A stretch of 64,000 nt of DNA from Clostridia bacterium (GTDB taxonomy: Bacteria > Bacillota > Clostridia > TANB77 > CAG-508): positions 64,553 to 128,552 of the forward strand of contig JAFWKV010000001.1 of the NCBI GenBank assembly GCA_017511265.1. The letters run 5' to 3'. The notes under the pieces were generated by a model. The model did not search any database and was not told the origin of the DNA. It saw nothing but the letters and a program-made list of their open reading frames with translations. The position numbers and the translations under genes were made by a program. Numbering within the stretch: position 1 is the stretch's first letter; each line of letters starts with the position of its first letter. Of this stretch, positions 29,827-62,425 are shown piece after piece.

Positions 29827-30828
29827 TTAGTTTATTTTAAATGCTAAAAAAGCAATGAATGGTAAATGAAATAACACAATTTCTTTGCACATTTTTTTTA
29901 TTAGATTTTTTCCACCTAAAAGTTTAAAATACCTAATAAAGTGTATATTCATAATTCTTGTTTTTGAAATCATTTCATAATAAGCTATTAATTGTTTGCA
30001 AAGCAACTTGTCCTCGTTATTTTCTGCGTAGTCAAAGCACATTTTAGCTGCATCTAGATAGCAATTCTCAATTGCCCATTTTCTATATTTTCTAAAAGTA
30101 TCATAATTATTACCATACTTTTCTTTCCATCTTGCCAAATTTTGATTTAAACTTCTACCTCCAAAAACATTAGAGGTATGAAGTCTATAATCAAATAACT
30201 CATCATAAATATAATCAATACCATTCAATTCATTCGCAATAAATCCAGCTAACCAATCATGAGCTATAACGTCTGTTTTGAATGGAATCATTTTTTCTTT
30301 TACTTCTTTTGTAATTATTTGCGAACAACCTATTCCTGCATATCTTGATATAGCAAGCTTACTTTTTCCCTTTATAAGTGGTATATTCTTATGCTTAAAG
30401 TAATCTGTGCATATTACATTTCCATTTTCGTCAATTTGCCTACAATTAACATATACTAAACTACTATTTGTTTCTTTTATTTTTATTAAACTTTTTTCTA
30501 CCTTGTCATTGTGCCATACATCATCATGGTCACAAAACATTATATAATCTGCGGTTGATTGTTTTAAAAGAAATTCAAAATTACTATTGAATCCAATATT
30601 TTTTTCTTGCATAAAAATAATTACTCTGTCATCTTTTTCTTCATATTCTTTTAAAACTTGTCCCACATTTTTTTCAGTTGATGCATCATCACTAATGTAA
30701 ATTTTTATATTTTTGTGTGTCTGATTAAGTAAGCTATCAATTTGCTCTCGCAAAAAATTCTCATTTGAATTATAAGTTGCAAGCAAAATATCAACTAAAT
30801 CGTCATTCATACACTTTCTTTCCCTCAT
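29827..30828 (-). CDS. GT2 glycosyltransferase (rhamnosyltransferase-like family)
   Basis: VDILLATYNSNENFLREQIDSLLNQT...ISDDAST...CDHDDVW. The true start may be ATG 30810 (MNDDL). Confidence 0.8.
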   Translation of the reverse strand: MRERKCMNDDLVDILLATYNSNENFLREQIDSLLNQTHKNIKIYISDDASTEKNVGQVLKEYEEKDDRVIIFMQEKNIGFNSNFEFLLKQSTADYIMFCDHDDVWHNDKVEKSLIKIKETNSSLVYVNCRQIDENGNVICTDYFKHKNIPLIKGKSKLAISRYAGIGCSQIITKEVKEKMIPFKTDVIAHDWLAGFIANELNGIDYIYDELFDYRLHTSNVFGGRSLNQNLARWKEKYGNNYDTFRKYRKWAIENCYLDAAKMCFDYAENNEDKLLCKQLIAYYEMISKTRIMNIHFIRYFKLLGGKNLIKKMCKEIVLFHLPFIAFLAFKIN

Positions 30829-30840
30829 TTTTTAATTTTC

Positions 30841-31003
30841 TTTAGATGTTGATATATAAATATATAAATACGAAAATCTTTGTGTGTCGCAAGCTACGAA
30901 CTAAAAGTACTAGTCTGTAGCTTGCTCCAATCGCACTCGTTTCACTCGTTTGGTCGCTTACGCAGATTTTCTTTATTTATATATTTATATATCAACATCT
31001 AAA
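30841..31003. repeat. Hairpin element HP-A1 (family A): 30-bp perfect arms plus 101-nt conserved core
   Basis: Arms 30841-30870 and 30972-31003 are exact reverse complements. Inner helix GAAAATCT/AGATTTTC. Core 30871-30971 is the reverse complement of the HP-A2 core (about 90% identical by eye). Confidence 0.95.
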
Positions 31004-31020
31004 ACAATATCTAAAAAATT

Positions 31021-31992: not shown

Positions 31993-32080
31993 ATGTTTCA
32001 CTCCCATATTATTAGATAGTGTAATTTTACCTTTTTTAGTGAGTTTTGTCAATATGTTGGATTTTTTATAAAGGTTGCTT

Positions 32081-32320
32081 TATGTAGATAGTTGTTACAG
32101 GAAAGGTTAAAGTTAGATAAATGCGTTCAGATGCCAATATGTATAAATAAAGAAAATCTGCGTAAGCGACCAAACGAGCAAAGCGAGTGCGATTGGAGCA
32201 AGCTACATACTAGTATTTTTATTTGGAGCTTGCGACACACAAAGATTTTCGTATTTATACATATTGGCATCTGAACGCATTTATCTAACTTTAACCTTTC
32301 CTGTAACAACTATCTACATA
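32081..32320. repeat. Hairpin element HP-A2 (family A): 69-bp perfect arms plus conserved core
   Basis: Arms 32081-32149 and 32252-32320 are exact reverse complements. Core is 32150-32251. The right arm contains the last codons and stop of uppP (32310-32320). Confidence 0.95.
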
Positions 32321-33133: not shown

Positions 33134-33424
33134 GGGCGTGTCAATGGGGACGGGTTTAATTGACACACTGATGATTTTTGGGTTGGTGTGAAAAAGTATC
33201 ACTTGAATAGCACTCTTATTGTTAAAAAATGAAGACCGCGTAGGCGGAGCGAAGCGTAGTCGGCTGGAGCTTTCGTTTCATTAATACATTTCAATGAAAA
33301 AAAGCGACAACAAGGTCGTAATGTTTAACAATAAGAATGATACTCTAGTTGATGCTTTTTCACCCCAACCCAAAAATCATCATCAGTGTGTCATTTAAGC
33401 CCGTCCCCATTGACACACGTCCCC
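33134..33424. repeat. Hairpin element HP-B1 (family B): imperfect ~100-nt arms plus conserved core
   Basis: Arms contain inverted copies of the 31-nt motif TGTGTCAATTAAGCCCGTCCCCATTGACACA (33137-33167 reversed, 33387-33417). Core 33234-33317 is about 90% identical to 52641-52726. The right arm encodes the last 12 codons of dpaA. Confidence 0.9.
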
Positions 33425-37245: not shown

Positions 37246-38577
37246 ATGCAAATTGTAACATTAATCATACTTGTAGCAATCAATGCCTTTTTTGCAGCAT
37301 CAGAAATGGCATTTGTAACACTAAATGATGCAAAAATTGCCTCACTGGCAAAAGAAGGAAACAAAAAAGCAAAAAAAATTCAAAAAATGTTAAATAAACC
37401 TAGTAAATTTTTAGCAACAATTCAAATAGGAATAACTCTTGCAGGATTTTTATCAAGTGCCTTTGCAGCAGACACATTTGTTAGTGTTCTAGCACCTGTT
37501 TTACAAAAAAGTATGCCATTTTTCAGCATAGAAATATGGCAAGGAATTTCACTAGTACTTATCACTATTTTGCTTTCATTTTTCACACTTATCTTTGGCG
37601 AATTAGTGCCAAAAAGAATAGCTATGAAATTTTCAGAAAAGGTTGCATTTTTTGCTGTAGGACCAATTCATTTTGTTTCTGTCATTACTGCACCTTTTGT
37701 AGCATTTTTAACAGCATCAACAAACTTCATTTCTAAATTATTTGGTATTAGCGAAACAGATGAAGAAACAGTTACTGAAGAAGAAATAAGAATGATGGTC
37801 AATCAAGGTGGAGAAAATGGAGCAATAGATGATAGTGAACAAGAAATGATAAATAATGTGTTTGAATTCAATGACAAAGAAGTTTCTGAAATAATGATTT
37901 ATAGAACTGAAATTTTTGCAGTTGATGGAGACACTACAGTAGCAGAATTTGAAAAAATTATTGAAAAAGAAAATTATAGATATAGTAGAATCCCTGTATA
38001 TGATAAAACTATTGATAATATGCAAGGCGTTGTATATTTAAAAGATATTCTAAAGGCAAAAGATAATAAAAATGATAGCAGTACAAGAATCAAAAAAATT
38101 ACTAGAAAAATTTTATTCTTCCCAGAATCTAAATTTATTAATGATGCATTTAAAGAAATGCAAGTAAATAAAATTCAAATGGCTGTTGTTCTAGATGAAT
38201 ATGGTGGAACTACTGGTATTGTAACAATGGAAGATATTCTTGAAGAACTCGTTGGCGATATTTATGATGAATATGATAAGGTTGAATTTAAATATGAAAA
38301 ATTAGATGATAATACTTTTAGACTTGATGGTTCTATGCCAATATTTGATGTAAATAAAATAATGGAAATAGAACTTCCTGAAGGTGATTATGATACTTTA
38401 TCTGGATTTATTATAAATGAATTAGATAGAATTCCTGAAGACAATGAGCGTCCAACTGTTGAAACACCACAAGCTGTATTTAAAGTTACAAAAATTCAAA
38501 ATAGAAAAATTGAACGCGTTAAGGCTTGTAGAACTAAAACTTTAGAAGGAAAAAATGAATCTGTCGATGAAGGCTAA
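37246..38577 (+). CDS. CNNM/TlyC-family membrane protein (DUF21, CBS pair, CorC_HlyC domains)
   Basis: N-terminal 4-TM DUF21 (GELVPKRIA), a CBS pair, and a C-terminal TGIVTMEDILEELVGDIYDEYD transporter-associated domain. The last 9 codons lie in the HP-D arm. Confidence 0.85.
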   Translation: MQIVTLIILVAINAFFAASEMAFVTLNDAKIASLAKEGNKKAKKIQKMLNKPSKFLATIQIGITLAGFLSSAFAADTFVSVLAPVLQKSMPFFSIEIWQGISLVLITILLSFFTLIFGELVPKRIAMKFSEKVAFFAVGPIHFVSVITAPFVAFLTASTNFISKLFGISETDEETVTEEEIRMMVNQGGENGAIDDSEQEMINNVFEFNDKEVSEIMIYRTEIFAVDGDTTVAEFEKIIEKENYRYSRIPVYDKTIDNMQGVVYLKDILKAKDNKNDSSTRIKKITRKILFFPESKFINDAFKEMQVNKIQMAVVLDEYGGTTGIVTMEDILEELVGDIYDEYDKVEFKYEKLDDNTFRLDGSMPIFDVNKIMEIELPEGDYDTLSGFIINELDRIPEDNERPTVETPQAVFKVTKIQNRKIERVKACRTKTLEGKNESVDEG

Positions 38578-38822
38578 GCTTTTTGATGGTTTGGCTAGAG
38601 CAGATGATTAGTTAAATTATTGAAATTTCGAATGTGCAGTGGAGCAATTGTACAAAATATTAAAGAGAAGTCAAAAAGGGTCCTGTCTTCGGGTATAGTT
38701 TTGACTTCTCTTTTAGATTTTGTAAATTGTGTAGCAAGCCGAGAAATGTAAATAATTTAACTAATCATCTGCTCTAGCCAAACCATCAAAAAGCTTAGCC
38801 TTCATCGACAGATTCATTTTTT
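38550..38822. repeat. Hairpin element HP-D: 71-bp perfect outer arms, imperfect inner stem, GC-rich apical loop
   Basis: 38550-38620 is the exact reverse complement of 38752-38822. The inner stem includes AAAGAGAAGTCAAAA/TTTTGACTTCTCTTT around the loop AGGGTCCTGTCTTCGGGTAT (about 38677-38696). The arms cover the stops of both convergent genes. Confidence 0.95.
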
Positions 38823-40043
38823 TCTTCTAATTATCCAATCTTTCTCACACTTTATAGGTAAATGCATAAATACCTTTTGTCCTTGTCTTCCGGGATTTAC
38901 AGTATCAATTTCTTCTTGTGTTTCAATATCCCATAGTCTATCAATTACAAATTTATATGGCTCTATCTTACTTGGAATAATAATTTCAAGCATATCTCCC
39001 ACTTGTAATCTATTACGTATTTCTATTACAGATTTATCATCATTATACTCTACTACTTTTCCTCCAAATTGATATTCTGCATTATACTGTTTTCCTGCAT
39101 ATTCTTGTATGTCTTTGTTCTCTCTATCATTGAAATAAAATGTAGTTAATCCTCTTGTTTTAACCTTTTCTATTTCTTTTAAATATTTAGTATAATCATA
39201 ATTTTCATGGTCTTTTTCATAATCGTCTATTGCATTTCTATATACATTTATTATGCTTGCTAAATAATATTCTGTTTTTAATCTTCCTTCAATTTTTAAG
39301 CTATCTACACCCATCTCAATTATTTCAGGAAGTTCTTTTATTAGGCATAAATCTTTTGAAGAAAAAATGCTTGTACCATATTCATTTGTTTCAATTGGCA
39401 TTAACTCCCCTGGATTGTTTGCTTCTTCTGCATATAAATTATATGACCATCTACAGCTTTGTGCACAATCTCCTAAATTTGCACTTCTGCCTGTCATAAA
39501 ATCACTTAAAAAGCATCTGCCAGAAAAAGCAAAGCAAATTGCGCCATGAATGAATATTTCAATTTCCATATCTTTGCTTTTGTTTTCTACAATGTACTTT
39601 AGCTGTTCTTTATTCATTTCTCTTGCCATTATCATTCTTTTCGCACCTTGCTTATGCCAGAAGTTGCAAGTATGTAGACTAACAAGATTTGCCTGTGTAC
39701 TCATGTGTATGTCAATACTTGGAGCATACTGTTTTACAATTTCTACTACTCCACCATCTGCTACAATAACTGCATCTGCTTTTAATTCTTCTAGCATTTT
39801 AACTTGCTCAATTATTTCTTCATATTTGTCGTCCCAAGCATAAATGTTTAATGTAACATATACTTTTTTACCTATACTATGTGCATATTTTATTGTGTTT
39901 GCTAAATCTTCGTTTTCCATATCTGCTCTGGTTCTTAATGATAATGAAGATGTACCACAATAGACTGCATCTGCTCCATACAAAAAGGCTATTTTTGCTT
40001 TTTCGAATGAACCGGCTGGTGCTAACAATTCAATTTTTTTCAT
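38814..40043 (-). CDS. Peptidase U32 family protein (YrrO/TrhP-like)
   Basis: ELLAPAGSFEKAKIAFLYGADAVYCG, EIFIHGAICFAFSGRCFLS: U32 hallmarks. Start at ATG 40043, preceded by AAGGAGG. Sits next to a YrrM-like methyltransferase, as in B. subtilis yrrMNO. Confidence 0.85.
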   Translation of the reverse strand: MKKIELLAPAGSFEKAKIAFLYGADAVYCGTSSLSLRTRADMENEDLANTIKYAHSIGKKVYVTLNIYAWDDKYEEIIEQVKMLEELKADAVIVADGGVVEIVKQYAPSIDIHMSTQANLVSLHTCNFWHKQGAKRMIMAREMNKEQLKYIVENKSKDMEIEIFIHGAICFAFSGRCFLSDFMTGRSANLGDCAQSCRWSYNLYAEEANNPGELMPIETNEYGTSIFSSKDLCLIKELPEIIEMGVDSLKIEGRLKTEYYLASIINVYRNAIDDYEKDHENYDYTKYLKEIEKVKTRGLTTFYFNDRENKDIQEYAGKQYNAEYQFGGKVVEYNDDKSVIEIRNRLQVGDMLEIIIPSKIEPYKFVIDRLWDIETQEEIDTVNPGRQGQKVFMHLPIKCEKDWIIRRKK

Positions 40044-40059: not shown

Positions 40060-40128
40060 GTTGTCAATTAGGTCGGGATGTGTCAATTAAGCCCGTCCCC
40101 ATTGACACACCCCGACCTAATTGACAAC
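40060..40128. repeat. REP-like hairpin HP-R1 (28-bp stem, 13-nt loop) containing the 31-nt motif
   Basis: GTTGTCAATTAGGTCGGGATGTGTCAAT / ATTGACACACCCCGACCTAATTGACAAC with one A.C mismatch. Motif copy at 40079-40109. Fills the gap between the methyltransferase stop (40130) and the U32 RBS (40050-40056). Confidence 0.9.
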
Positions 40129-47258: not shown

Positions 47259-47279
47259 TTTCAGTTCTCCTTTTTTAGT

Positions 47280-47421
47280 GATGTTTTTTGGGACGTGTTG
47301 TGTCAATGGGGACGGGCTTAATTGACACGCTTGATGCCTTAGTAGAAATTTTTAAGTCACCAAAGCATTAGTGTGTCAATTAAGCCCGTCCCCATTGACA
47401 CAACCCATTCCCAAAATCATC
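47280..47421. repeat. REPIN-like doublet HP-R2: two inverted copies of the 31-nt motif forming a ~65-bp imperfect hairpin
   Basis: Motif copies at 47299-47328 (reversed) and 47372-47402. The flanks GATG..TTTTGGGA.. and ..TCCCAAAATCATC also pair. The element occupies the whole sufS-sufU spacer and includes the first bases of the sufS stop codon. Confidence 0.9.
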
Positions 47422-48643
47422 ACTTCTTTATAAATTTTTCAAACATACTATAGGCTTTTTTTAAAGCCTCAACTAGCCTATCCACGTCCTCTTTATTATT
47501 ATAGATATAAAAGCTTGCTCTACATGTTGCAGGAAGTTTTAAAAATCTAATTAATGGTTGTGCACAATGGTCTCCCGCACGCACTGCTATGCCTTGACTA
47601 TCTAGAATTGTTGCTAAATCATGTGGATGTACTCCTTTTATATTAAAAGAAATTACTCCACAATGATTATCTTCATTTGGTGTATAGTAAGTTTCTACAA
47701 AATCAAGTTTTGCAAGTTCTTGTTTAGCATAGCCTACTACTTCTTCCTCTATTTTTGCAATTGTATCATACCCAATACTTTCAATATAATCAATTGCAGC
47801 TCCTAAACCTACAACGCCTTCTACATTTTGAGTTCCTGCTTCAAATTTATTTGGAAGTGGTGCAAAAGTAGTTTTATCTTCATACACATATTCTATCATA
47901 TCTCCACCCATTAGAAATGGATTCATATCATTTAATAATCTCTTTTTACCATACAACACGCCAATTCCAAGAGGGCCAAGCATTTTATGTCCTGAAAATA
48001 CTAAAAAGTCTGCATCTAAGTCTTGGACATCCACCTTCATGTGAGGAATACTTTGTGATGCGTCAACAACAACTATAGCACCTTTTTTATGAGCATATTT
48101 AATTATCTCTTTTACATTATTTATAGTTCCTAACACATTAGAAACATGTGTAATGCCAACAATTTTAGTATTGTCTGTTATTTTTGCTTTTATCTCTTCT
48201 TCAGATAATTCGTATTCATCATTTATATACATGTATTCTAGTTTGCTACCTGTTTTTTTTGTTACAAATTGCCAGGGTACTAAATTTGAATGATGCTCCA
48301 TTATAGAAATTATCACAGAATCATCTTCACCTAAATTTTCTAATCCATACGAATATGCAATTAAATTTAAAGCTTCACTTGCATTTTTAGTAAAAATAAT
48401 TTGTTCCGATTTTTCAGCATTTATAAACTTAGCAATCTTTTTTCTTGTATTTTCATATACATCAGTTGCTTCTATACTTAATTCATACGCTCCTCTATGA
48501 GGATTAGCATTTTTTGTTTTATAAAAATTATCAATTGCATCTATAACGCACTGAGGTCTTTGTGAAGTAGCCCCACTATCTAAGTAAGCTATGTCGATTT
48601 TTTCAAAGATTGGAAAATCTTTTTTTATTTTATCTACATTCAT
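47420..48643 (-). CDS. sufS: Cysteine desulfurase SufS
   Basis: AYLDSGATSQRP, SGHKMLGPLGIGVLYG (PLP lysine), RAGDHCAQP. Confidence 0.9.
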   Translation of the reverse strand: MNVDKIKKDFPIFEKIDIAYLDSGATSQRPQCVIDAIDNFYKTKNANPHRGAYELSIEATDVYENTRKKIAKFINAEKSEQIIFTKNASEALNLIAYSYGLENLGEDDSVIISIMEHHSNLVPWQFVTKKTGSKLEYMYINDEYELSEEEIKAKITDNTKIVGITHVSNVLGTINNVKEIIKYAHKKGAIVVVDASQSIPHMKVDVQDLDADFLVFSGHKMLGPLGIGVLYGKKRLLNDMNPFLMGGDMIEYVYEDKTTFAPLPNKFEAGTQNVEGVVGLGAAIDYIESIGYDTIAKIEEEVVGYAKQELAKLDFVETYYTPNEDNHCGVISFNIKGVHPHDLATILDSQGIAVRAGDHCAQPLIRFLKLPATCRASFYIYNNKEDVDRLVEALKKAYSMFEKFIKK

Positions 48644-52538: not shown

Positions 52539-52827
52539 TGCTGTCTTTTGGGACGGGGCAAAAAAACATCACCTGCTGTCTTTTGGGACGGGGTTAAAAA
52601 ACATCATCATCTCCATTAGCTATATTTATTAAAAAATGTAGACCGCGTAGGCGGAGCGAAGCGTAGTCGTCTGGAGCTTTCTCTTCACTAATATAAATTT
52701 CAATGAAAGAAAGCGACAACAAGGTCGTAATGTTTAATAAATATAACCAATGGAGATGATGATGTTTTTTAACCCCGTCCCAAAAGACAGCAGGTGATGT
52801 TTTTTTGCCCCGTCCCAAAAGACAGCA
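52539..52827. repeat. Hairpin element HP-B2 (family B): ~92-bp near-perfect arms plus conserved core
   Basis: Arms pair from 52539/52827 inward with only two mismatches (52618.52748, 52620.52746). Each arm carries two copies of CTGTCTTTTGGGACGGGG (52541-52558, 52576-52593; reversed at 52773-52790, 52808-52825). Core is 52641-52726. Confidence 0.95.
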
Positions 52828-54555: not shown

Positions 54556-56002
54556 ATGTCATTAGATAGTAACACATTTAGAGAACGAAATAAACAACAT
54601 CCTATTAGAAAAAACGCATTAGAAAATTTTAGTAAAGTTACAAATTTTTCTGTAAGCAAAGATGTAAGAAGATATATGTATCAAGTTATGGCAACAATTG
54701 GCTTAGAGCTTGAGCGAAAATTCCCAAATACAGTACATTTTGATGATAACCGGTTTTAAAATGTTCGGTCGTATAAAATCTGAAAAGAGTACATCTGAAA
54801 AAAAAGCATCGAATATACAAGATTATGATGATAAATTTCAAACTGCTATAGAAGAGCAAAAAGACATACCTACAGAAGTAAGACCTATTTTTGATTTTTA
54901 TGCTTACAAATTAGTATGTCCTGAAATTACAAACTCTCATGATGTAATAAATACTGTAATTTCAGATATTTTAACTGATATTGGAAAACATTCACCCAAA
55001 TATCTATCATACATAACTGAATTAAAAAGTAGTATTGATATATCGCGTTTTCCTTCATTAGAATTTATTACTAACAATTTTTCAGATAAATATCCTAATT
55101 TAAAAGATAAGTTAGCAGCTGTAATGTATACTCAAAATGAGGCAAATAAAACTCAAGAATTTTTGGATAATGCTCCTAAAGATGTATCAAATCTTACTTA
55201 TTCAGAATATTATTCAAAAATAATTGAATGTTATCAACTTTTAATTAATCTTTCGTATGATGATTCTATTGAAGAATATACTCGTATTGCAAAATTAGCT
55301 AAGCAGTCTAGAGAGCAATTACATCAAATAATTGAACAAGGTAAAAGTCATCAAAAAATTGATAAACAGTTCCATAAAGAATACGGAGATACTTTAGAAA
55401 AACTATTAAAACATGTTTCAAAAAAGCGAACAAACAGGCTTGACCTAACAATTTGTGATTTGATGGTCTTCGATGTTTTAACTACTTGTGAATCATTAAA
55501 AAAGTTAGGAGTGTCTTATTCAAAGGATCCTACTAGAACTAAGAAAAAGAGGAAGCAAAATGGCTACATAGCAAATTTTTATAGTTTAGATATGCCAAAT
55601 GGATTAACATCTGAAATTCAATTACAATCACTTTATAGATATGAATATGGTGAGTATGGACCTGCAGCACATCATAAAATGGAAAATGGATTAAAGAAAA
55701 GAACTTTATTTAAAAGACCTAAAAACAAAAGTAAATATGCAGATTGGGCTGAGAAGCAATTTAAAGCATTACCTAGATATTTTACCTATAGAGGTAATGG
55801 TTATGTTGAAGTACATAGCACTCTTCAAAATTTTAGAAAATATTATGACTGCAAAGATAAAAGTGAGGTTCAAACATATGTTGAATTTATTGCACAGCAT
55901 GATGTTGATTTATTAGATAGCCATCTTATACAATTTTCTTTGGATGATACTTCTCCTTTAAATAAATCAACAAAAGCAAATAATTCCGCAGAAGAACGCT
56001 AA
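54556..56002 (+). CDS. Atypical RelA/SpoT-homologue (RSH) nucleotidyltransferase-like protein; needs a +1 frame change at 54754-54759
   Basis: ATG 54556 follows GGAGGTGA. FGRIKSEKSTSEKK, FDFYAYKLVC, NGYIANFYSL...SEIQLQS...AAHHKM follow the order of RelA_SpoT synthetase motifs but are degenerate, and about 190 aa are inserted between them. The N-terminal 67 codons end at TAA 54757-54759. Skipping one T restores ...DDNRFKMFGRIKS. Confidence 0.55.
54754..54759 (+). other. TTT_TAA site joining the two RSH reading frames
   Basis: CGG TTT TAA AAT G in frame 0. Re-pairing Phe-tRNA on the overlapping TTT (+1) gives AAA ATG TTC GGT CGT = KMFGR. Confidence 0.6.
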
Positions 56003-56207
56003 GAACAATTTTTATAAATAAATAATAACTCATATACTATATAAATATAGAATCGCATGAATGTTGAATTATAAATATATTTGGAACAAAACATAGCTGG
56101 GGTCTTCCTATTGGTCTTGTTCCGACAATATATTTATAATTCAACATTTATGCGATTCTATATTTATATAGTATATGAGTTATTATTTATTTATAAAAAT
56201 TGTTCTT
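56001..56207. repeat. Hairpin element HP-C2 (family C): ~81-bp arms with a single G.T mismatch
   Basis: 56001-56081 pairs with 56127-56207 (mismatch 56059.56149). Apex GGAACAA/TTGTTCC encloses AAAACATAGCTGGGGTCTTCCTA (56088-56110). The right arm contains the last 7 sense codons and stop of the SEDS gene. The left arm starts at the last base of the RSH stop codon. Confidence 0.95.
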
Positions 56208-57292
56208 TGTCGTTTGCTGCTTATATTAAGTAATAGTCCTATACATACAAAGCTTGTTATTAATGAGCTTCCTCCATAACTAATAAACAAAAGCGGTATA
56301 CCTGTAATTGGAAGCAATCCAATTGTCATACCTATATTTTCAGCCATATGGAAGAAGAAAATTCCAGCAATGCCTATAGCAATATATGATCCCAAATTAT
56401 CATGTGCAGTTTTTGCTACATAAATTGCCTTTGTTATCAGAAATACATATAAAATAACAATTAAAGCAGCCATAATAAATCCTAATTCTTCTCCAATTGC
56501 CGCAAAAATGAAGTCTGTAGTTTTTGGATGTAAATAGCCTAATTGAGTTTGATTTCCTTGTAATAACCCCATTCCTAAAAGTTCACCTGCACCAACTGCT
56601 AATTTAGATTGAATTATATTATAGCCTGCTCCTCTTGGATCTAGCTCTGGATTTAAATATACATTTATTCTATTTTTTGCATAATCTGGTAAAACGAAAT
56701 TATATATTAGCGGTACAGCGACTGCAACAAGTACTGCTACAGTAATTATATATTTTTTATCTATTCCTGCTGTAAATAATATACATAATAATGCAATAAT
56801 GTATGCCATAGCAGTTCCATTGTCTGGTTCTTTAACAACTAGTCCTATCGGAATTCCAGCTATTAATAATATAAGTAATAACCATCCAAATTTATTTATT
56901 CTACTTATTCCTCTTTCTTGTATTTTCGAGATAGTAAAACTAAGAACTAATATTAAAAAAATTTTTGTAAATTCTGCTGGCTGAAATGTAAATGAACCTA
57001 AGTCAAACCAGCTTCTTGCTCCATTTACTGGCGTGGTAAATAAAACTCCCACCAGTAATGCACAAAAAAATACATACCATATCGGTGAAACTTTAGCTAT
57101 TACTTCATAATCAATTATTCCTACTATTAGCATTGCTACTACACTTATTCCAAGCCATATTGCTTGTTTTTTTAATTCTGAAAATTCTGTATTATACGAA
57201 ACTGTATATAATGCTATCATTCCAATTATAGTCAATGCTACTGCACAAATTAAAATTGCCCATTCTGTATTTTTTAGTCGTTGTCTTCCCAT
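56183..57292 (-). CDS. SEDS-family peptidoglycan glycosyltransferase (FtsW/RodA/SpoVE)
   Basis: 10-TM protein with GARSWFDLG, FQPAEFTKI, PDNGTA, LPITGIPLLFISYGGSS. Start at ATG 57292, preceded by AAAGGAGAAAAA. Confidence 0.85.
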   Translation of the reverse strand: MGRQRLKNTEWAILICAVALTIIGMIALYTVSYNTEFSELKKQAIWLGISVVAMLIVGIIDYEVIAKVSPIWYVFFCALLVGVLFTTPVNGARSWFDLGSFTFQPAEFTKIFLILVLSFTISKIQERGISRINKFGWLLLILLIAGIPIGLVVKEPDNGTAMAYIIALLCILFTAGIDKKYIITVAVLVAVAVPLIYNFVLPDYAKNRINVYLNPELDPRGAGYNIIQSKLAVGAGELLGMGLLQGNQTQLGYLHPKTTDFIFAAIGEELGFIMAALIVILYVFLITKAIYVAKTAHDNLGSYIAIGIAGIFFFHMAENIGMTIGLLPITGIPLLFISYGGSSLITSFVCIGLLLNISSKRQRTIFINK

Positions 57293-62212: not shown

Positions 62213-62235
62213 ATTCCCACTTCCTTAGCAAAAAT

Positions 62236-62425
62236 TATACCCCACTGGGCCGTAAGACTAGTTGAATTTTTAAGGACCTGCTCCTAAAAACAGGTGGGTG
62301 CCTACCTAAATATTCCTGGGCTTCTTACTGTACTGTAAGCTTGCACGCCATATTTGAGAGTTCGGCCCCTCTTAATGTGTGTTGGTTCTAAAAATTCCGT
62401 CTTTACAAACTTTGTAGGGTATATA
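62236..62425 (+). ncRNA. Candidate ~190-nt structured RNA, 6S-RNA-like long irregular hairpin (strand tentative)
   Basis: GC-enriched intergenic block. Paired ends TATACCC/GGGTATA, GTAAGAC/GTCTTTAC, AATTTTTA/TAAAAATT and GGACC/GGTTC enclose a central region with small hairpins (AGGTGG-GTGC-CTACCT; GAGAG-N8-CTCTT; CTTAC-N6-GTAAG). G.T pairs favour the plus strand. No sequence-level match to 6S can be asserted from memory. Confidence 0.35.

Follow-up and report, generated by a model that had tools for sequence, protein, structure and literature searches.

A covarying folded core as the probable conserved centre of a non-autonomous MITE in uncultured gut Clostridia

Genes and inverted repeats at the locus

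The window, that is the whole 64,000-nucleotide stretch of DNA analysed here, has about 27% G+C. Its genes, nearly all on the minus strand, include those for DpaA, BacA and a series of family-2 glycosyltransferases. This gene content points to a spore-forming member of the Clostridia. A 6S/SsrS RNA gene at 62235-62423 on the minus strand was the sole Rfam match in the window (74.7 bits against a gathering score of 46.4).

An initial annotation had flagged the core A1 (32150-32251, plus strand) and compared it with two B-type cores, B1 (33234-33317) and B2 (52641-52726), both also on the plus strand. When the sequence was re-read, all of them were found at these positions and as it had written them. 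A second A-type copy, A2, occupies 30871-30973 on the minus strand. The covariance model R1, scanned over the 64-kb window, matched these four places only, with 103 bits for A1 (E 1e-28), 95 bits for A2, 56 bits for B1 and 57 bits for B2. The blocks said to be common to A and B were borne out too: the pattern GCGTARGCG-N(0-12)-GAGNNAANCG-N(6-10)-TGGAGC occurs at exactly four places in the window and in 0 of 100 shuffles. The second shared block needs a 1-nt indel to align A with B, and a 7-nt insert, ACCAAAC, is present in the A cores and absent from the B cores. The G+C content of the core is 0.40-0.43, against about 0.27 in the window, so the core is indeed richer than its surroundings.

Each of the four cores is the centre of a long inverted repeat, a feature absent from the initial annotation. 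The unit is about 190-290 bp long and consists of inverted arms around an asymmetric core of about 100 nt; the arms in the window measure 33-95 nt and are 86-100% complementary. The left arm of A1 (32081-32149), which is identical in all contigs of the same strain, has 69 nt and is 100% complementary to the right arm (32252-32320). The whole A2 element (30828-31016) has 43-nt arms with 86% complementarity and has orthologues in two sister species, one of them inverted. The B1 composite (33138-33416) has arms made of REP-like GGGACGGGG modules, and B1 is flanked by two shorter inverted repeats, one of 38 nt at 95% and one of 33 nt at 94%. The B2 element (52539-52827) has 95-nt arms at 98%, with two tandem modules of 33-35 nt per arm. 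The inner arms of B are similar to A-type arms, and the outer arms are separate REP-like modules. Because the core is central in a long palindrome, what had been called its closing helix is the innermost part of that palindrome.

The arms reach into the neighbouring genes. The outer 11 nt of the right A1 arm (32310-32320) form the end of the BacA gene, with its final codons and stop (…YICR*), and the B1 composite supplies the C-terminus of DpaA (…GTCVNGDGLK*, 33391-33416). The corresponding C-termini in the sister species are different (…HGFKI* and …IDLLL*). A near-consensus promoter, TTGACA-17-TAAAAT, lies at 32024-32052 on the minus strand between A1 and the downstream glycosyltransferase gene, and is kept in both sister species, with or without the element.

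REP-like modules of about 30-35 nt are also found as single copies, tandem copies or inverted doublets. They are of two kinds, TGAT..TTTTGGG..GGGG..AAAAA..ATCA and GTGTCAATGGGGACGGGcTTAATTGACAC, and were located at 47277-47424, 40079-40113, 33138-33233 and 52539-52640, and at 1507-1540 of the sister-species contig L143. At the site that the entire B1 composite occupies in the window, a sister species has a single REP-like module, so the palindromes may grow by inverted duplication of flanking modules.

Three more long inverted-repeat elements were found in the window, with centres unrelated to the core. Two of them, 38542-38830 (88-nt arms, 97%) and 55988-56220 (94-nt arms, 93%), have different centres, which were in no other fetched locus; both are situated between convergent genes, whose 3' ends they overlap. 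The centre of 55988-56220, TTGGA-stem-CCGACAA, has a faint likeness to the apical helix of the core (CM 14 bits, E 0.12). The window elements C and D were considered as distant relatives of the core and were rejected, as their CM scores were not significant.

Metagenome contigs of the source species (L115, L118, L120, L121, L129-L136 and L140-L142) very often end in the arms of the elements or at their edge, which means that the elements fragment assemblies. One of these, L134, is a chimeric contig in which G+C-rich foreign DNA is joined just beside B2.

The family and the fold of its core

A pattern scan of species-representative genomes gave at least 112 matching loci, one of which (L073, Planctomycetota) is a chance match. 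Among the matches listed, the A-type homologues in Clostridia number more than 110; they belong to about 37 MAGs of uncultured Clostridia or Clostridium, which came from the guts of rabbit, human (Hadza, Nepal), mouse and ruminants. The genome bins are incomplete, and up to 15 copies per MAG were counted among the matches listed. The initial annotation had proposed that homologues be collected; from these A-type copies the covariance model R1 was built, and it detected extra copies within the fetched loci. The elements are intergenic, multi-copy and in either orientation. Copies within one MAG have about 30-60 nt of each arm in common, and then continue into unrelated DNA.

Decayed or rearranged members were also seen, at L145:2018-2125, L031:846-1007 and L087:6293-6363, and as 5' halves in L100 and L112. 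Among such members are an orthologue without the TGGAGC block, a copy whose 5' domain has grown by over 50 nt, and several copies truncated at the apical helix next to genes. Conserved blocks have been lost from the orthologue of A2 in L145. Four loci with large inserts (L100, L112, L104 and L007) were considered as autonomous elements, and are actually truncations or longer hairpins.

The core did not match any family of Rfam 15 when the whole window was searched at gathering thresholds, and at E<=10 only chance matches or matches to long hairpins were obtained, far under threshold. The MITE at L054:7122-7319 gave a sub-threshold Rfam match to plant miRNA precursors (MIR2619, 51 bits against a gathering score of 113); matches of this type probably reflect a generic likeness of long A+T-rich hairpins and not homology. 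BLAST against plasmid and phage collections gave no real match, and the pattern scan of viral contigs gave 0. A tRNA- or tmRNA-like origin was rejected because ARAGORN found none. One reading frame is open through A1, yet members differ by indels of 1, 2 or 3 nt, and since the indels in the conserved part are not multiples of 3, an ORF is ruled out. Literature searches by sequence strings and by topic returned nothing relevant to the element. The family is undescribed, and its kind is a known one, that of MITE or REP-like intergenic repeats that have an RNA-type structure.

The purine-rich strand of the core folds as a junction of three hairpins, P1a, P2 and P3, on a closing helix, P1. In A1, on the plus strand, pair counts place P1 at 32152-32159 with 32243-32250, P1a (GCGUAAGC) at 32160-32167 and P2 at 32174-32188; the junction GCGAU follows at 32189-32193, the apical helix P3 at 32194-32237, with tandem G·A at 32196-97 with 32234-35, and the 3' junction CACAA at 32238-32242. 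The invariant GCGUAAGC would form a 2-bp hairpin with a GUAA loop. P2, which was not in the initial annotation, reads AC-GA-GC-RAA-GC-GA-GU: two Watson-Crick pairs are followed by tandem G·A, then by another two pairs, and a triloop closes the hairpin. Its outer pairs alternate between AC/GU, AU/AU and CC/GG, and its inner pair is C:G or U:A in variants of the 5' block; three P2 pairs have compensatory changes. The start of P3 is like P2, with U-G / G-A / G-C on one side and G-C / G-A / C-A on the other.

The fold was examined with 102 distinct copies aligned by MAFFT, in which 28 columns are invariant, many of them in the junctions. Mutual information and RNAalifold both recovered P1 and P3 from this alignment. 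Over P1, P2 and P3, 91.8% of the cells are paired against 78.8% in shuffles, and there are 343 double-change cells against 108, values that none of 500 shuffles reached. Double changes occur at 16 of the 23 pairs of the core fold, and pairing falls to 22-40% in a control with slid partners. An alignment made with the covariance model gave the same picture and corrected a one-column offset in P2 of the MAFFT alignment; in it, the P2 pair 28:109 is AU in 80 copies, CG in 28, GU in 1 and other in 0, and the pair 35:103 is CG in 94, UA in 11, UG in 3 and other in 2. At a P2 pair that does not vary among the 102 copies, the orthologue in L143 has changed on both sides, from G:C to A:U. RNAalifold offered an alternative for the 5' domain (14-16:38-40 and 19-20:33-34), and this was dropped for P1a and P2 in view of the covariation at 27:43 and 28:42 and of the change from G:C to A:U that L143 has at 33:39. 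The stem covariation that had been proposed from few copies is therefore real, and conservation of a single-strand fold of the core is well supported.

The mismatches tell which strand folds. In the core helices, purine-purine mismatches (AG+GA+AA+GG) number 117 against 25 pyrimidine-pyrimidine mismatches (CT+TC+TT+CC), a ratio of about 4.6:1, and in the arms the numbers are 312 and 156. This excess, which includes the recurrent tandem G·A, points to the GCGUAAGCG strand as the folding strand, and selection on the core seems to act on one strand. G·U is not in excess in the core helices (19 vs 25, with one misaligned pair set aside), so RNA is not favoured over single-stranded DNA by this measure.

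The B cores share part of this architecture. Common to B and A are P1, P3 with the tandem G·A at its base, and the junction blocks, among them GACA-CAA; both types also have the GCG-loop-GCG hairpin and the mini-hairpin GCGAAGC. A tetraloop on a GCG-type stem is present in both types as had been described, GUAA in A and GUAG in B. The outer P2 pairs are missing from B because B has no ACCAAAC segment. No B-type core was found outside the source species by pattern scans, among the matches listed, and a metagenome scan gave six chance matches in G+C-rich DNA. As B was in no other genome, the claim of a common architecture, which seems reasonable, rests for B on two near-identical copies.

Arms and core have evolved differently. 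When the A1 element of the window is compared with its orthologue in L143, identity is 90% in the core, 65-70% in the arms and 77% at the third codon positions of BacA. Conservation is thus three to four times higher in the core than in the arms, and is about that of first codon positions. The arms are nevertheless self-complementary at 100% in A1 of the window and at 97% in its L143 orthologue. Arm mismatches over 104 copies are 132 G-T against 162 A-C, with no wobble bias. Arms that diverge fast and stay complementary, without a bias of G-T over A-C, mean that their complementarity is kept at DNA level: the two arms exchange sequence with each other and diverge between species about as fast as synonymous sites. 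Covarying stems had been taken as the signature of a functional fold, but much of the covariation, in the closing helix and arms, is due to concerted evolution of DNA. The conservation of the core could also come partly from gene conversion among copies and not from selection at each locus.

Mobility and inversion of the elements

Over 104 copies, arm length ranges from 30 to 124 nt with a median of 55. A sharp-ended unit of 215 bp (TTCAAGTTTCGAC ... GTCGAAACTTGAA) is common to seven copies that have unrelated flanks and come from several genomes. Some copies lie between perfect 9-bp direct repeats (AGGTCTAAA, TCGTGACAA, CGACATTTT, TTCATTATT). A 9-bp target site duplication (TSD) with at most one mismatch was found at the inverted-repeat ends of 9 of 99 copies against 1.0% of displaced controls (p = 8e-7), most clearly in the subfamily of L038, L054, L077 and L106. 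The four copies in the window are old insertions, and no TSD could be detected at them.

Empty sites were found in both sister species. In L145 (BacA 79% identical) the spacer between BacA and GT2 is 95 nt long and has no A1, and in L143 (BacA 85% identical) the spacer between DpaA and BacA is 46 nt long and has no B1, while orthologues of A1 and A2 are present there. So the elements have terminal inverted repeats and a TSD of fixed length, are small, non-coding and multi-copy, and are present or absent at orthologous sites, as is expected of MITEs.

About 0.9 Mb of related DNA and the collections of plasmids and phages yielded no autonomous IS whose ends match those of the element. BLAST with the terminal inverted repeats against all fetched loci gave paired ends around cores and one solo end only, and no linked gene family (transposase, RAYT, RT or invertase) recurred in an all-against-all clustering of 1,623 ORFs from the loci. 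From the 9-bp duplication we infer a DDE-type transposase, which would act in trans on the element with 9-bp staggered cuts. The duplications and the lack of a recurrent linked gene in these loci argue against a PATE derived from IS200/IS605 and a REP-RAYT system. Against the MITE reading is that only 9% of copies have a TSD; moreover, conservation is highest in the centre and not at the termini, which would be unusual in a DDE-type MITE.

The A1 core was found in both orientations in one strain. Among same-strain contigs with identical BacA, and with identical A1 flank and arm, the core has the window orientation in L113, L114 and L116 and is inverted in L119 and L117. Assemblies with k below 69 cannot orient the A1 core, so the firm evidence of flipping is from the MEGAHIT k=141 contigs L117 and L139. 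These two are from one sample and both end at 141 nt made of the arm (69 nt) and core positions 1-72; L117 enters from the BacA flank and L139 from the GT2 flank, and in both the 5' block of the core adjoins the arm. Such ends are the de Bruijn junction expected when reads of both orientations are in the sample. B1 (7 contigs), B2 (3) and A2 (4), whose arms are imperfect, kept the same orientation in all these contigs of the species. Between species, however, the A2 orthologue of L143 lies the other way round, and the distinguishable outer halves of its arms have changed places.

Because within-population flipping is seen only in the copy with perfect arms, it points to homology-driven exchange. 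The arms would be homogenised, and the core flipped, by homologous recombination or template switching between the arms, with no dedicated invertase; arm-to-arm exchange of this kind would account for flipping and for concerted evolution alike. A core that inverts relative to its flanks does not act as a cis-regulator of fixed orientation. Its orientation is near random to its neighbours, with 27 sense and 38 antisense copies where both neighbours are co-directional, and the folding strand coincides twice as often with the strand of negative GC skew as with the other. The gene contexts of the copies (71% co-directional, 19% divergent and 10% convergent) look unremarkable by eye, with no baseline for the comparison.

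Possible role of the core and comparison with known elements

We estimate with a probability of roughly 60% that the core is the conserved centre of a non-autonomous MITE in uncultured low-G+C spore-forming gut Clostridia, which is moved, flipped and selected as proposed here. For the structured motif that had been suggested, it means that a conserved fold with real covariation and no Rfam match stands, and that the motif is no free-standing RNA gene and is better placed as the central module of a MITE-like transposon. The initial annotation had itself counted an IS end among the outcomes that would refute its reading; the transposon proposed here is of the foldback type. Selection probably acts on the core in the form of a folded single strand, and RNA from transcription of the element is the likeliest such form. 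This RNA could be recognised by a trans-acting protein, or could serve as a processing or stability module, and would not regulate particular neighbours. The proposed role is by analogy with bcr1, ERIC and Correia elements, and a folded transcript module like their RNA structures is the function we favour. A promoter and terminator scan found no convincing internal promoter or terminator in the core, and no enrichment.

A rather unlikely alternative is that the core is a small RNA gene family of its own, such as a self-cleaving ribozyme or a protein sponge or scaffold, with the arms as an RNase III-type stalk and the MITE features secondary. It would fit with the invariant columns being shared across about 37 species, with the presence of a multi-helix junction, of tandem G·A at two places and of a GUAA loop, of GNRA type, that sits on a C-G pair, and with core conservation equal to that of first codon positions while purine-purine mismatches are kept. 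The layout of closing stem, hairpin(s) and UGGA-[helix]-GACA is also loosely hammerhead-like; a hammerhead itself was rejected on reading the sequence, as UGGA...GACA comes without the CUGANGA/GAAA core. But there is no match to any Rfam ribozyme or other RNA family even at E<=10, no promoter or terminator is conserved, the orientation to the flanks is free and actually flips, and some orthologues, like A2 in L145, are without conserved blocks. Moreover, the TSDs and the empty sites mean that the moving unit is the whole element including its arms.

Even less probably, the fold would act as single-stranded DNA or as a cruciform hairpin signal in transposition, replication or repair, for example for an HUH enzyme, with flipping as a by-product. 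The core contains GCGAAGC and GCGTAAGC, which Hirao et al. are said to have described as classic, very stable DNA mini-hairpins. Consistent with a DNA signal are the lack of G·U bias, the long palindrome that could extrude, and an orientation independent of transcription with the observed flip-flop, which may be compared with hairpin termini. However, HUH transposases of the IS200/IS605 or IS91 type do not make 9-bp TSDs, and no such enzyme gene was linked in the ORF clustering of the loci. The third base of the mini-hairpin is freely G or A (GCGAAGC or GCAAAGC), and A would weaken a DNA hairpin. Finally, the 2:1 excess by GC skew puts the folding strand on the inferred leading-strand template and not on the exposed lagging-strand template.

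It is very doubtful that the core is a new functional RNA class, as a self-processing ribozyme or a protein-recruiting module, that rides on the MITE and is made phase-variable by arm recombination. If it were true, host transcripts that cross the element in one orientation would contain the sense core in its folded form, and would be cut, stabilised or bound through it; those from the opposite orientation would carry an inert complement only.

Four readings of the core were set aside: a cis-regulator of fixed orientation, a coding sequence, a known RNA family and inert filler. The last of these, in which the core is filler of an ancestral IS without a functional fold and covaries through palindrome-correcting template switching and gene conversion, is equally doubtful: the complementarity of arms and P1 is clearly at DNA level, template switching can mimic compensatory change and some copies are truncated or degenerate, but the tandem G·A and the A·G mismatch of P3 have been kept on one strand in dozens of lineages where correction would erase them, P2 covaries outside any larger palindrome, the unpaired junction blocks are invariant, and the core is far better conserved than arms and third codon positions.

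For the MITE reading, the consequences are practical as well as conceptual. An abundant, undescribed repeat family is documented in a poorly known clade of uncultured gut bacteria, and a candidate structured nucleic-acid module is available with its alignment and covariance model. Two sources of covariation could be separated, concerted evolution of DNA in the arms and strand-specific structural constraint in the core, which is a caution for scans that take compensating stems as proof of RNA. The elements break metagenome assemblies, rewrite the 3' ends of genes (BacA, DpaA) and create orientation polymorphism beside cell-envelope genes.

Several known systems can be compared. Like the invertons of gut bacteria, A1 has inverted repeats around a short segment that occurs in either orientation in one population, and it adjoins cell-envelope glycosyltransferase genes. 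Unlike them, the A1-type core has no promoter-like site, its repeats are long and differ between loci and species, and no invertase is linked, whereas invertons have short repeats recognised by an invertase; an inverton was rejected on this ground.

REPs are G+C-rich hairpins of 20-40 nt with a GTAG or CGTC tag, and their mobilisation leaves no 9-bp duplication. The present elements resemble the REP/REPIN-RAYT systems as dispersed extragenic palindromes, and the arms of B1, B2 and element E are REP-like modules of about 33 nt in inverted doublets; unlike in those systems, no RAYT gene flanked by REPs was seen here.

ERIC/IRU sequences of Enterobacteriaceae are imperfect palindromes of about 127 bp, intergenic, in either orientation and strikingly conserved across species, and they affect mRNA stability at the RNA level (PMC3184786). 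ERIC is conserved over the whole palindrome and duplicates TA, whereas here the arms diverge fast, the centre alone is conserved and the duplication is of 9 bp.

The bcr1 repeat belongs to the group A bcr repeats of the Bacillus cereus group, and we know of no report of its inversion. It is a transcribed, mobile and non-autonomous intergenic repeat of Firmicutes of about 155 bp, with short direct repeats, a position that varies between related strains, and a predicted cruciform-like multi-hairpin fold with compensatory changes (PMC3184786, after Klevan 2007 and Kristoffersen 2011). The present element is likewise multi-copy and intergenic with a fold that has compensatory changes. It has no sequence similarity to bcr1, whose direct repeats are of 5 bp against 9 bp here and which is without long perfect arms; transcription was demonstrated for bcr1, whereas for the present element it is proposed.

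Correia elements (CREE/NEMIS) of Neisseria are from a different phylum and have no sequence similarity to the present element. Their ends are short (about 26 bp), their duplication is TA, and their centre holds an IHF site and promoters where the present element has a covarying asymmetric junction. They are reported to invert in situ (PMC10969869, citing Elbeyioglu 2017), which is a precedent for the inversion seen here. Like the present element, Correia elements are MITEs with inverted ends and many intergenic copies in both orientations, and their transcripts form long hairpins.
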